Shown here in pieces: positions 2,946-62,882 of a stretch of 64,000 nt of DNA. The notes beneath the pieces are model-generated. The model saw nothing but the letters and a program-made list of their open reading frames with translations. It ran no database searches and had not been told where the DNA came from. This stretch comes from Eledone cirrhosa (taxonomy: Eukaryota). The translations under genes and the position numbers were made by a program. The stretch lies in NCBI GenBank assembly GCA_964016885.1, contig OZ024741.1:347696001-347760000 (forward strand), in the 5' to 3' direction. The stretch's first letter is position 1, and each line of letters starts with the position of its first letter.

Positions 2946-3134
2946 GGAACGAGTAGAACCCCGACGGCTGATCTCAAGCCATTTCGTCGACTAATTCTGG
3001 ACTGAATTAGCCGTCGGAACGGCTTGAGCTCAGCCGTCGGGGTCCTACTCGTTCCTATTACCCACTCTACTACAAAGTATTGAGTACTTTGGTGCGTTAT
3101 GGTCCACCTGGTTCCTTACCACATTTCCTTTGTT
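2946..3134. mobile_element. Miniature fold-back derivative of PLE family A 3' end
   Basis: 2946-~3003 is the reverse complement of ~3004-3056; the right arm continues with an ~80-nt tail matching the ends of the large elements at 6467 and 45725; flanked by (TA)n. Confidence 0.9.
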
Positions 3135-4510
3135 GTATATATATATATATATATATATATATATATATATATATATATACAAAATGATACGAAACGAAAT
3201 GAGCTGTGTGGCTACTAAAAACAAGGTTGAGATAGGTGGACAGGACGCAACAAGAGGAGAAAAGGAGAGAGAAGAAAGAATCGTTCGTCAGCTGTAAAAA
3301 ATCTGCGATCTAGATGTTTTGGCGCTGAATTACAGGCCTTCATATATATATATATATATATGAATGTTTGTGTGTGGGTGTATGTGTATTCATTCTTTTA
3401 ATATTTCATGGGTTTCAGTTATTAAACAACGACCATGCTGGGACAGTGCTTTGTTTATATCGATATATATTTACAGCTAAAATAATTACAACTAAAATAA
3501 TGAACATACACAGGCTCGGAGAGAAATATAAACACATTCATAAACAACACGATCTAGACGTTGCCACACGGAGGTCGTATACAGCATTCCCCAAACACGG
3601 TAAAAAATACAGAATTCCAAGATAATATTTACTAAAACATAAAAATAGATTCACTATACTCTTCAATTGCAATCGTATGATATGAAAGTACTTTTATGTT
3701 TGCACAATATTTTGACATATATACTATAATTTTCCTTTTTCTATATTCGTTTTCGTTTTGTCAAGCTCACTTATGCATAGTTATAAATATTTTATTTTGT
3801 ATAGAATAAAGATACGTCTTCAATTAAATTCATGTATCTACTTCAAAATATGTTTTAGAATTAAATTACACCACTCCCTACATATTGCAGCGTCTTATTC
3901 TACTTTAAATTACAGAAAATAATCATTCTGTCCTGAGATGTATATTCTATGGATAAAATGTCCTGGAAATTCTTATTCAGTTTTCAGTAAATGTATTAAT
4001 CTTCAAACATTAGTAAGTTCACCACATTCAAGTAAATCTTACTTCATTCACCATAACAATTTCCTCCGTTTTATCATATTTGAGTAGCAGTGTTGTGTTA
4101 AACGTTACCCTAAGTAGCGTCTACTAATGGTTTTAAATTACGTGTATGTGCATTGGTTAGGATAATAGCTGATTTTGCGTTTACTCACGTACATTTAGTG
4201 TATGTATAAAGTTACATCTGTATAAATAGGAAGTATAACCGAGACATCATATTGTCTCTGTCTCTCTCTCTCTCTCTCTCTCTCTCTCTCTCTCTCTCTC
4301 TATATATATATATATATATATATATATATATATATATATATATATATATATAAATATATATATATATATATATTCATTAAAATATGGAATATATATATAT
4401 ATATATATATATATATATATATATATATATATATATATATATATATATATATATATATATATATAAGTATATATATATATATATATGAATATATATACAC
4501 ATATATATAT

Positions 4511-5190
4511 ATTCATTAGTTAAGCAAAACAAGACCACAAATTTCACAAGGAAGACATTATTAAAAGATTGTCAACATTTTAGTTTGGCGGCCATCTTGT
4601 TACCCATAGGCATATCTCGCACAATGCAGCCTCGACAGAAGAATACTGCTCGATTATGGGAGACAATAGATATACCCAGGACGCCATAGTGAAATACCAA
4701 TAAATGGAACATTACATTTATGTAAGATTCTTTCCTTATTTTAATTTATATTCCTTTTGAAGTTCAGATGAGCTGCTCTAATTATACCTAAGTTAATTAT
4801 TTTCAACTGAACCAGATCAATAATGATCTATAATCATTTGATGCAGAAATATTATATGGTGTATCGAAACAATTGTAAACGGACATTATTATTATTAATA
4901 GTATTATTATTATTATTATTCCCTACATTCCTTACATCAAACTAAAATATGTTGACAATCTTTTAATAATGTCTTCCTTGTGAAATGTGTGGTCTTGTTT
5001 AGCTTAACAAATGAATATTTCCAGTTCTGTGCACCTAACCTCTGCATGAACCCAGCCACCTAGCTGCATTCCACTGCATATTGCACATTGAGCAGATGCC
5101 TTTACGCTTTGGCTTCTAACTAATTCACCAATCTCCCTACTCCTCTCCTATGTCCATCTCTCTCTTTAAGATTGGTAACTCTTGAACTGT
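4511..5190. mobile_element. Non-coding fold-back element in (TA)n with one-sided tail
   Basis: 4511-4587 is inverted at 4938-5016; tail 5017-5190 holds a bulged hairpin at 5024-5093; possible decayed HHR at 4762-4880 (gtt-CAGATGA...GAAA-CAATTG-TA-aac). Confidence 0.75.
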
Positions 5191-5294
5191 GTATATATAT
5201 ATATATATATATATATATATATATATATATATATATATATATATATATATAAAGTTTAAATATACATGTAAAGTTTCATACACTTAACATGTAT

Positions 5295-5337
5295 GTGCGA
5301 CACCTTGGGTCTCCAAAACTCGACCTTCATCGGGCAC
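5295..5337 (-). ncRNA. Decayed minimal hammerhead ribozyme
   Basis: Reverse complement reads gtgc CCGATGA a ggtc-loop-gacc caaggt GTC gcac. Stems I and II are intact, but GAAA has been lost. Confidence 0.45.
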
Positions 5338-5755
5338 CCGTACAAAATGGGAAGAAGGGAGACTCATTTATTCGATTCCTTTAGACCAATTTACTGGTTT
5401 GAAGGCTGATGAGGCTGAAGATGTGTGTGTATAAACTTGTCTTGTACATCACCTTTCTTTCATCATTTATCCGTTCAGTTCTATGCTCCAATACACTGGT
5501 ATTTTCTTCCTCCGCATTTAACGGTTTCTATATTTCATCAGTTTGTCAAATTGTGTATTGTCTCTCTGTCAACCACTTGCTGCTGGACTTTGTCATCTGA
5601 AGCATTTTGCCCATTCGTTTTAACAACTGTTTCAACGATGGATTTTCTCATTTTTATACTATTCAAACTAATTCTTTCTTCATCTCCATCAATGACAACA
5701 TTGTTAAATATATATATATATATATTTATATATATATATATATATATATATATAC

Positions 5756-6400
5756 GTTATTCCGGGTTGAATCGAAGGTAACCACAGTAAGTAAGGTACT
5801 CAATACATTGCAGAGTATAAAATATAGATGAGATTCTACAGGTCTAGAACTGTTTCATTATTTAGAAATCATCAGGAATCTGGGTATCAAAAAATAAGTA
5901 TGCTATTTATAGGTCTCTACAAGTGGTAGGAGAGGGTGGGGAGTAGGATGGGTGTAGGTCATTGGTTGATAGACAATTCATTAAAAGCTAATTCTACAAA
6001 GCTATAGTTTATTTTTATTTTTTGAGTAACAAAGGCAGAAAGAATTCTATAAACAGGTTCAGGATTGCATGCCACTCCTTCTTATTAAGTTTCTCTTAAG
6101 CTAACAGGTGTCTATAAAATCAGTGGGGGTCAGTCATGGTAGATAGATTTAAAGGAAAGGGAGATTCTTTAAAAGCTAAATTCTTTACTAAGTGACAAAG
6201 GTTTAGAGAATTCTGTAGACAAATTCAAAATATTGAGTGCATATCTTACAATTATCTTCAAATTTCTCTTAAACTATTCAACTATATGCCAAAATAAACA
6301 GACACATTCACAAAACACACTCACTCACACACTCGCGCGCACACATAAACACACACACATACACATATACATATATATACACACACATACATATAAATAT
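5756..6400 (-). mobile_element. Left (tailed) arm of outer fold-back, PLE pLTR-like, inverted partner at 22940-23503
   Basis: 5820-6340 is the near-identical reverse complement of 22995-23497; extra ~60-nt tail at 5756-5818. Confidence 0.85.
5831..5881 (-). ncRNA. Type I hammerhead ribozyme (canonical core)
   Basis: Reverse complement reads agattc CTGATGA tttctaaataat GAAA cag-ttctagac-ctg TA gaatct. Confidence 0.8.
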
Positions 6401-6547
6401 ATATATATATATATATATATATATATATATATATATATATATATATATATATATATATATATATATAACGAAGAAAATGTGGTAAGGAACCAGGTGGACC
6501 ATAACGCACCAAAGTACTCAATACTTAGGGTAGTAGAGTGGGTAATA

Positions 6548-60800: not shown

Positions 60801-60829
60801 GTCATGAATTTTATTATTAATGGTGAACG

Positions 60830-60970
60830 TGAGTTCAAATGGCGCCGAGGCTAACGCTGCCTCTCATCCATACGGGGTTGATAAAATAAAGTACCAGTCA
60901 CGCACTGAGGTCGATTTAATCGACTTACACCTCCCTCAAAATTACTGGCATTGTGCCTATATAAGAAACC
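60830..60970 (+). mobile_element. tRNA-derived SINE (5'-truncated)
   Basis: gagttcaaat...gccgagg...tcatcc...gtaccagt...ttgtgcctatataagaaac. Confidence 0.75.
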
Positions 60971-61299
60971 ATTAATAATGGTGAATGTCAACACAGAACA
61001 CGAACAAACCTTATCTTGCTAAACTTAGAATCGATAGGGAGGAACCTGAGGAAAATTTTATACATCATTCCCACGAGGAATTTAACATGTCTGCTCATAA
61101 AATGGATATGGATAATAGGGGTTGTATTAACCATTTATACTAATTTGAATTAGCTGTTAAATGGTTTGGAGCATAATATAGAAAAGGCCCCTGTATTTTT
61201 GATAGTTGTCATTGTTTGGTATATCAAAGTGGAAATTGATTGAATAGGTTCCTAATCAAAATATTCGAGCTTCAACAACTCCACCTTTCATTTTCAGAA

Positions 61300-61790
61300 A
61301 TAGGTAACCCTGAATTATCTTGCCCAATTCACCTTTGCAATATTAAGAAGAAATGATGTGCTGCTGTGTAAAGAATTTAGCGCCATTTGCGTGCTATGTT
61401 GAGGATGTCAATCAATTAAGTAGCGTATTCTTCCTTCATTAGCTAGGGTGGTCATTCGGTATATATTTATGGTTTAATCGGTTCGAGGTTCAATTTACGC
61501 ATAACAGGTCATCGATTATCATGCATTCAGTATTTATTCAATCAATTATATTAGTTAATTCTAATCTCTTATTAGAGATATCGATAAATTATTGGTTGTT
61601 CATTTATCAAAATTCTAGTGAATTAAGAAATATTGAAACTGTCAGGATTTAAATGACTAACGCGAAAGTTAGGCTACCCGTCTGTGATCTCAACTCCCAC
61701 TTTCATTGTAATATAATAATAGATGTAAAAGAACAGGAGATTCATGGTTTTAATCCTTTAGTCTCCAAAATGACACATTCGAATGCTATT
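61300..61790 (+). pseudogene. Very decayed PLE thumb/linker remnant
   Basis: Collinear residual motifs (SGFK-like at ~61642, WF-NP-like at ~61745); frames broken. Confidence 0.3.
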
Positions 61791-61820
61791 CTGAGTATAT
61801 CCTCAATATATATATATATA

Positions 61821-62030
61821 GTTATGTAATAAACAACATGAGATAGTTATTTCATTTACCAGTGGTTTCTTGAAGGCAGATGTTATGTCTGTCTTTTGAC
61901 GAATGAAGACAGGCATAATATTTGCCTTCAAGAAACCACTGGTAAATGAAATAATTATCTTATGTTGTCTATTATATAACTAATACGCTCTGTAGCCCAC
62001 ATAGAGCATTTCTGACGGAAATACTTCATT
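61821..62030. mobile_element. Miniature family E-related fold-back
   Basis: Near-perfect palindrome at 61821-61981, each arm with GAAA ccactgg TA aatgaa; tail 61982-62030 with hairpin at 61987-62007. Confidence 0.88.
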
Positions 62031-62593
62031 CATATATATATATATATATATATATATATATATATATATATATATATATATTTATATACATATATATATA
62101 TATATATGTGAACGTATGTATATTTATATATATATATATATATATTTATATATATAATTATATATATATATATATATATATATATATATATATATATATA
62201 TATATGTATATATAAGTATATATATATATATATATATATATATATATATATATATATATATATATATATATATACATATATATATATATATATACGTATG
62301 TATATATATACATATACGTATGTATGTATATACATATATACGTATGTATATATATATATATGTTTATATATACATACGTATATATATATGCATATATATG
62401 TATATACATATATATATATACATACGTATATATATATGTATATATGTATATATATATATATATACGTATATAATACGTATATATATATATATATATATAT
62501 ATATATATATATATATATATATATATATATATATATATATGTAAATATATATATATATACTGTATATATATATATATATACTGTATATATATA

Positions 62594-62882
62594 GGAAAAA
62601 GTATGACCCCCGACTGCAGAGCTCAACCCGTTTCGACAGCTATTTCTGGACTAAATTAGAATGTTTGTATATATATATATATATATATATACATATATAT
62701 ATATATATATATATATATATATATATATACAAACATTCTAATATAGTCAAGAATAGCCGTCGAAATGGCTTGAGCTCTGCCGTCGGTGTCATTATTTTTC
62801 CTATTTCCCACTCTATTTCACTAAGTATTCAGTACTCTGGTGCGTTATGGTCTATCTGGTTCCTTACCACAATTCCTTTGTT
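62594..62882. mobile_element. Miniature family A-related fold-back with (TA)n spacer
   Basis: 62594-62667 is inverted at 62730-62802; tail extends to 62882. Confidence 0.85.

Follow-up and report, generated by a model that had tools for sequence, protein, structure and literature searches.

The closest described relatives of the elements treated in this work are Penelope-like elements (PLEs) of three kinds: those of the Hydra clade (Craig et al. 2021, PMC8557442), Poseidon of Anolis carolinensis, for which cutting and extension of both strands have been reported in vitro and a dimer is predicted (Frangieh et al. 2024, PMC11167929), and the Penelope elements of the rotifer Adineta vaga (Arkhipova et al. 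2013, PMC3846280). In the portions of these reports available to us, all three name the origin of the tandem and inverted structures of PLEs as an open question; the first gives no arm-pair counts and no mechanism for the Hydra clade, and the second does not tie its two reverse transcriptase (RT) start sites to inverted pairs, run-off or jumps. Here we describe a stretch of 64,000 nt from Eledone cirrhosa (GCA_964016885.1, contig OZ024741.1:347,696,001-347,760,000, forward strand; the window), which is a nest of retrotransposon insertions in (TA)n. An original prediction, made from its sequence, listed 13 insertions composed of two head-to-head arms, only one of which carries a tail. The short end of such a pair is called S and the tailed end L; the pairing of one S with one L turns out to be systematic, genome-wide, and to extend far beyond the window.

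Genome-wide pairing was counted by sequence patterns, which cover intact, compact fold-backs of one PLE family, called here family A. Three patterns were used, the self-complementary S/S and L/L ones being counted once each. They found 9,769 S/L fold-backs (4,869 + 4,900), 66 S/S and 83 L/L: the S/L share is 98.5%, where random pairing allows at most 50%, and reversed-pattern controls gave 0 matches, so that the pairing is not due to chance. The non-random pairing of two registers, as originally proposed, is supported by the tally. A 27-nt family A anchor has 34,222 copies in the genome, and a script assigned to 88 of the first 100 an opposite-type head-to-head partner, in agreement with the claim that this is the dominant mode of integration; 74 of the 100 were compact, three further same-type calls were overturned by BLAST, and one S/L call is doubtful. 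The same rule is seen in two other families, X, whose anchor has 17,857 copies, and B, with 4,472: all 12 visible pairs of family X are S/L, the partner being out of view in 8 of 30 loci, as are all 7 of family B, with the partner out of view in 19 of 30. Pairs of four more families, including a Neptune-type one, agree when read by eye among the matches listed, and so do the four of six fetched tandem arrays in which both ends were seen. The anchor strands of family X, unlike those of A and B, are unequal (10,067 forward, 7,790 reverse), likely because of a large tandem array somewhere.

Within the window, arms were mapped by masked self-BLAST and by aligning each (TA)n boundary with all the others. 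At eleven of the 13 starts on the list the arms are head-to-head, one ending at S and the other at L; a twelfth, at 23911, was read as S/L from family copies elsewhere (L146, L183), while no tail could be confirmed for the element at 45828. The five elements of family A all end at the same two points, as had been claimed. Tails are indeed present on one arm and are family-specific, their range being 40-177 nt instead of the expected 35-170. It was also rightly foreseen that the tail may lie on the coding or the non-coding arm: it is on the coding one at 11871, and on the non-coding or shorter one at 6468, 19995, 39947 and 48488.

Both the S and the L ends lie at an internal TA(T)/UA of the element, within the 5' untranslated region (UTR), so that this feature, originally ascribed to the short arm only, belongs to the tailed one too. 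The family A tail occupies 45645-45724 (plus strand), between register S (45644) and register L (45724); in 317 copies the sequence runs on past L and enters the 5' UTR of the unit that follows, with its ATG 95 nt after L. In one copy (L106:4679-4879) the frame stays open for about 66 codons 5' of the ATG, across S, tail and L. In family A, TAT follows both S and L, and a 3-nt pairing with a primer ending in ATA would be possible at either. The idea that a match to the target defines S did not survive in family X, where the main S end has about 1 nt in common with (TA)n; this points to a register set by position and not by pairing.

The joints between arms vary. Among 70 compact S/L junctions 58 are distinct, two recurring 5 times each, and the palindrome therefore appears to be made anew at each insertion. 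In the 57 that could be scored (13 were skipped), 20 carry inserts of 1-23 nt, 21 have an overlap of 0-1 nt, 9 of 2-3 nt and 7 of 4 nt; in the one subfamily whose template is known with certainty, the overlap is 0-1 nt at 18 of the 20 junctions that lack an insert, matching simulated blunt joins. Most joints are thus blunt or bear small inserts, and the microhomology originally invoked to join the two copies is not borne out. In one unusual pair (L314/L315, C1:91489170-91492740), a 55-nt piece of the family A open reading frame (ORF) is repeated about 65 times, nearly identically, at the arm junction, which might represent reiterative copying, recalling by analogy the repeat addition of telomerase.

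Either arm may be the longer one: in the same 57 compact pairs S is longer in 20, L in 26, and 11 are equal. At 6468, 19995, 39947 and 48488 the S arm is the coding one, and there are L arms, of 9, 41 and 44 nt, that have no overlap with the S arm of their pair. The priming of reverse transcription by both strands of the cut, as originally supposed, would fit the non-overlapping arms as well as the S arms longer than L. A subfamily 9-mer is common to both arms in 57 of 70 pairs, against 26% of cross pairs, and for most long arms the partner is, with exceptions, the nearest or tied-nearest neighbour. This suggests that both arms come from one source, be it one RNA or two. A derivation of S/S and L/L pairs from two RNAs found weak support, the 9-mer differing in 1 of 15 S/S and 6 of 15 L/L pairs, compared with 13 of 70 S/L ones. 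In an independent Illumina run, reads exit the element into (TA)n at S (2,907) and at L (570 + 401), and some opposite-strand joints, from few start places, fall at 45583-45588. Other such joints, at 57472-57575, seem to stem from reads mapped across similar arms and were set aside.

A feature that the original prediction did not contain is the point where compact arms stop. In family A they end 48-62 nt upstream of S, although the search pattern allowed longer arms, and the contig depth in the independent run rises about tenfold at this edge. The edge coincides with an initiator-like TTAGT/TCAGT, 29 nt behind the TATA-like TATTTAAA; in the element at 39947 the two motifs (45558-45587, plus strand, with TATTTAAA at 45558-45565) define a putative start of capped transcripts at A45587, which lies 57 nt upstream of S. 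Similarly, family X arms stop at CCAGATT, 30 nt behind TATAAATA, and 0 of 20 arms pass the matching point. A start site within the pseudo-long terminal repeat (pLTR) is known for Penelope and Chlamys.

Of 19 arms ending at the initiator A, 16 are preceded by an untemplated G. When the first 100 matches out of 218 were counted by eye, 49 were seen to have G+AGTCC, 2 have A+AGTCC, 21 no added base, 3 a G one base further in (+2), none a G at +4, and 25 other forms; 19 of the added-G cases, when fetched, proved to belong to ordinary subfamilies, and G occupies that position in 0 of 28 long-arm templates. An added G opposite the cap is a mark of RT reaching a capped 5' end, and the untemplated G at the stop is likely to be such a cap footprint.

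Upstream of S, a type I hammerhead ribozyme is predicted at 45539-45632 (plus strand), with a U3-A8 core and a long helix II, its predicted cut falling after 45627, 17 nt before S. The descriptor matched 4 times in the window and 0-1 times in each of 10 shuffles, three family A arms having the U3-A8 core, a variant described in PLEs (PMC4209133); CUGANGA/GAAA motifs were read by eye in families X and B. Rfam reported no hammerhead on the two small stretches tested, and across the window its sole matches were to microRNAs, driven by microsatellites and below threshold. Of 351 arms in a biased set, 5 have their end precisely at the predicted cut, 17 nt from S, and none at 18-19; these lie at L078, L246 and L248, and in one pair both arms meet at the cut, which may be a trace of cleavage in vivo. 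When folded freely, the 3' region scored no better than its shuffles (z 0.39). A helix between the tail and the sequence following L is predicted; the 30 read-through copies are closely alike in sequence. The tails of the otherwise unrelated families A (45645-45724) and X (5755-5820) share GTATTGAGTAC, predicted to fold into a small hairpin, a candidate protein-binding element; each tail is also predicted to pair with the bases immediately beyond L.

Of 30 loci that read through L, 16 extend out of view, 2 give no information, and in 12 the piece after L is short. Among these 12, the sequence is taken up again no more than 3 nt from the initiator A in 8 (7 insertions), and at the predicted cut of the ribozyme in 2. 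We read these resumptions as cDNAs that ran off the RNA 5' end and jumped to an internal position.

These observations are probably best explained by asymmetric twin priming as an obligate process, in which the cDNAs run off or jump at the 5' end of the RNA. A single PLE protein-RNA complex would cut (TA)n, and both DNA 3' ends would serve as primers, one at register L and the other at register S of the element RNA. A dimer whose RNA contacts are unequal could place one primer at each of the two registers, both most likely belonging to a single RNA. The RNA would begin at the capped initiator and both cDNAs would usually run off its 5' end, the subsequent end-joining producing the compact majority; less often, a cDNA would jump from the RNA 5' end to another RNA position, giving rise to long arms and tandems. 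Priming on a tandem read-through RNA would be an alternative route to long arms, pLTRs and arrays.

Various points weigh against this explanation. All its steps are read from genomic fossils in one assembly, and the patterns behind the pairing count see only compact family A elements. About 8 of the 100 family A anchors have no partner in view. The partner arm is not the nearest neighbour for 6468 or L216, and the 13 of 70 S/L pairs that differ in the 9-mer include a few that differ by subfamily. Family B shows no clean stop edge; its junction pattern caught mostly unrelated sequence and was dropped. As to the cap, a first genome-wide test was discarded because its control failed, being confounded by slippage after GAC (G at +4 in 38 of 41 cases versus +1 in 45 of 50, when the other arm ended GAC); in the set read by eye, added G versus none does not differ significantly between +1 and +2 (49:21 versus 3:4, p = 0.2), and several added-G cases carry slippage inserts. 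Finally, the anole element is reported to show no strand difference in RT start site in vitro (PMC11167929).

The main rival to asymmetric priming is an equal one, both arms starting at L and one being then cut back to S by the element endonuclease or by repair. Endonuclease trimming after equal priming was suggested by Craig et al. 2021 (PMC8557442); it would yield the same strict one-to-one rule, and genomic ends cannot distinguish the two processes. Incomplete trimming, however, would leave mainly L/L pairs, and S/S (66) is as frequent as L/L (83); moreover, the S and L of family A share the same 3-nt match to an ATA-ending primer, and the two tail ends match the two RT start sites found in vitro (PMC11167929). 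We hence regard trimming as unlikely. A still less probable explanation is a single priming event, with the inverted arm arising by self-priming, from a cDNA hairpin or an antisense RNA, as proposed from palindromes at the inverted junctions of rotifer PLEs (PMC3846280). Self-priming would account for the subfamily-matched arms, and small snap-back inserts do occur at joints. A fold-back cDNA, however, gives a tail only to the arm reaching further 5', and cannot provide one absent from the first arm; the S arms that extend further 5', as they do in 20 of the 57 compact pairs and in the insertions at 6468 and 39947, argue against a self-primed hairpin, as do the non-overlapping arms (23911, L014, L097, L102), which have no hairpin, and the stop of both arms at the sense-strand start site with an added G. 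The S/L rule, the likely cap footprint and the mapped jump points together argue against the published idea of self-priming.

Two further explanations regard the palindromes as something other than fresh products of integration. The similar size of some 10,000 compact copies and the two junctions that recur 5 times each among 70 could recall a unit like a miniature inverted-repeat transposable element (MITE), multiplying whole from few masters; this is very improbable, since 58 of 70 centres are distinct, the recurrent junctions occur in several subfamilies, the two ends of the unit are unequal, and the same S/L rule holds in multi-kilobase and tandem insertions. Palindromes are also a known long-read artefact, and no read or contig of independent data is shown to span a window-specific junction. 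A library chimera or assembly error would hardly, however, produce arms that differ by 2-20%, have their ends at two fixed points of the element and lie nested one within another, nor the loose ends into (TA)n at S and L and the joints at 45583-45588 seen, from few start places, in the Illumina run, and we give this explanation practically no weight.

By the makeup of their sequence, the elements are EN+ PLEs, carrying RT and a GIY-YIG-type endonuclease (EN) in a single ORF. The PLE identity originally put forward was upheld by these two domains, by the pLTR tandems and by the hammerhead descriptor match; 3,531-3,546-bp head-to-tail arrays, the 317 read-through copies, the inverted 5'-truncated arms and the tails are PLE hallmarks as well. 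The family A copy L106 has an uninterrupted 718-aa frame, with a YRDD RT core and a C-terminal VIY...YIG followed by R, E and N. Its motifs HSDKTGN (DKT), CNCPDRSIC (CxCx5C linker), CNLC (CxxC) and CKH (CxH), and the lack of CCHH, correspond to the definition of the Hydra clade, which includes DKT, a CxCx5C linker, CxxC, CxH near the EN end and no CCHH (PMC8557442), although L106 has RWR where the Hydra clade has RWK. Nearly all ends adjoin (TA)n, the target of that clade. By these motifs, family A would be a Hydra-clade PLE. In the element at 19995, a CDRRNCGIC linker (Cx2-5CxxC) precedes the GIY-YIG domain (Pfam PF01541, E 3.3e-07); this CxxxxCxxC arrangement suggests that a second PLE clade takes part, probably of the Neptune type, Neptune and Nematis both fitting an element whose RT is absent at that place. 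This domain was the only Pfam match in 8 window frames, none being found for family A, and a PDB search gave no match.

Family A accounts for both compact and long insertions in the window. Compact fold-backs lie at 2946-3135 (S left, L right, with an 80-nt tail at 3056-3135), at 57389-57591 (an old copy, L left with an 80-nt tail, S right) and at 62594-62881 (S left, L right with an 80-nt tail, (TA)n at the centre). The fold-back at 6468-11806 has a left L arm of about 1 kb with an 80-nt tail, and a right S arm with broken RT-EN frames in partial tandem. In that at 39947-45724, the left S arm is the longer and contains, on the minus strand, RT (41615-43174) and EN (41128-41718); the right L arm has an 80-nt tail, and the two are 98% identical over 2.5 kb. 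Family B contributes a fold-back at 48488-52968, with L left (tail of about 70-80 nt) and S right, carrying broken Hydra-type frames at 49326-51326, and a compact one at 61821-62031 (S left, L right, 51-nt tail).

Fold-backs of other families are found at 4513-5191 (S left, L right, 177-nt tail), at 57613-58586 (L left with an 89-nt tail, S right) and at 11871-19928, a Hydra-type element whose left L arm is the coding one (frames at 16138-17427, minus strand; tail 128-141 nt), S being on the right. The Neptune-type fold-back at 19995-22060 has L on the left with a 40-nt tail, and S on the right with a C-terminal GIY-YIG endonuclease (20248-20883). Two pairs are missing from the original list: one at 53862-54552 (L left with a 40-nt tail, S right), and a family X pair at 5755-23503 (L left with a 66-nt tail, S right), whose internal microsatellite hosts three later, nested insertions; both family X arms would derive from one event. 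At 23911-24148, an L arm cut within the tail is joined to an S arm; as the arms do not overlap, there is no inverted repeat. The repeat at 45829-46221, of unassigned family, is centred on (TA)13, with arm ends within 2-4 nt of each other, and has no relative among the 325 loci compared.

Later insertions enter internal microsatellites, and the insertions, whose paired arms diverge by 2-20%, nest within one another, at times deeply, as at 5755-23503. Fold-backs with (TA)n exactly at their centre are found in the window (46011-46037, 62668-62729) and in copy L176. Short pieces between TA runs (23594-23811, 23827-23887, 27089-27146, 34666-36154, 45758-45803, 47209-47245 and 48264-48463) appear to be further families with two-register ends, several as non-overlapping micro pairs. 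The broken RT and GIY-YIG-like fragments at 27676-28285 appear to belong to a further PLE family; a fold-back was not found there. Other repeats include a 468-bp tandem with 99% identity (35131-36156) and a dispersed repeat of about 200 nt resembling short interspersed nuclear elements (25103-25312, 30889-31099, 32629-33086, 47954-48043, 59372-59579, 60830-60974).

Inverted copies, one-sided tails and two RT start sites are known in PLEs, whereas for the strict S/L coupling and the run-off stop we found no paper. A literature search returned no PLE arm-pair tally and no twin-priming, run-off or strong-stop model, older papers (Arkhipova 2006; Evgen'ev and Arkhipova 2005; Schostak 2008) and the supplements of PMC11167929, which may hold related models, being outside its scope; a search for an added G opposite the cap found nothing. 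A rule that holds in 98.5% of about 10,000 independent events, together with a likely cap footprint and mapped jump points, offers sharp predictions for the existing in vitro system. In such genomes, palindromes of 0.2 kb, numbering tens of thousands, would represent dead ends of PLEs, easily mislabelled as MITEs, microRNA hairpins or assembly errors.

Compared with Hydra-clade PLEs, for which PMC8557442 reports units generally below 3 kb and tails of 30-40 nt, the family A unit measures 3.54 kb, the tails 40-177 nt, RWR replaces RWK and the hammerhead has a U3-A8 core. As in anole Poseidon (PMC11167929), where the tail is bounded by two internal RT start sites, the tail here lies between two internal registers, with a hammerhead, predicted in the present case, upstream of them and an AT-rich target; Poseidon, however, belongs to another clade, and its start sites are in the ORF, the registers of family A in the 5' UTR. 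The Adineta vaga elements share inverted head-to-head pLTRs, one of them tailed, and a TATA box and initiator within the pLTR, but have a low copy number and, in the part of PMC3846280 available, no tally, self-priming on an antisense template being proposed instead.

Beyond PLEs, two better-known processes provide terms of comparison. In the twin priming of L1, both target ends prime cDNA and the products are joined head-to-head, the second primer annealing at variable internal sites to copy a different part of the RNA, and the outcome being a minority one; here both sites are fixed, the arms mostly overlap and copy the same sequence, and pairing is the rule. In the strong-stop transfer of retroelements with long terminal repeats, priming near the RNA 5' end is followed by run-off at the cap and a jump, by means of a tRNA primer, RNase H and integrase. 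A 5' repeat of about 40 nt, from the start base to the ribozyme cut, would be available here too; in contrast, the primer would be the cut target DNA, neither RNase H nor integrase would take part, and the jumps observed all lead to internal positions, one to the RNA 3' end being what we infer. More tentatively than the twin priming itself, and with less than even confidence, it can be envisaged that PLEs have a chemistry of their own: an asymmetric RT-endonuclease dimer would prime both ends of the cut near the capped 5' end of one RNA and make two strong-stop cDNAs, and the ORF would be reached only by a jump to the RNA 3' end, via a short terminal repeat whose extent is fixed by the hammerhead cut. 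That one cycle would then yield fold-backs and pLTRs as well as tails and tandem arrays. If this is true, the closest relatives of telomerase would possess a target-primed equivalent of retroviral strand transfer.

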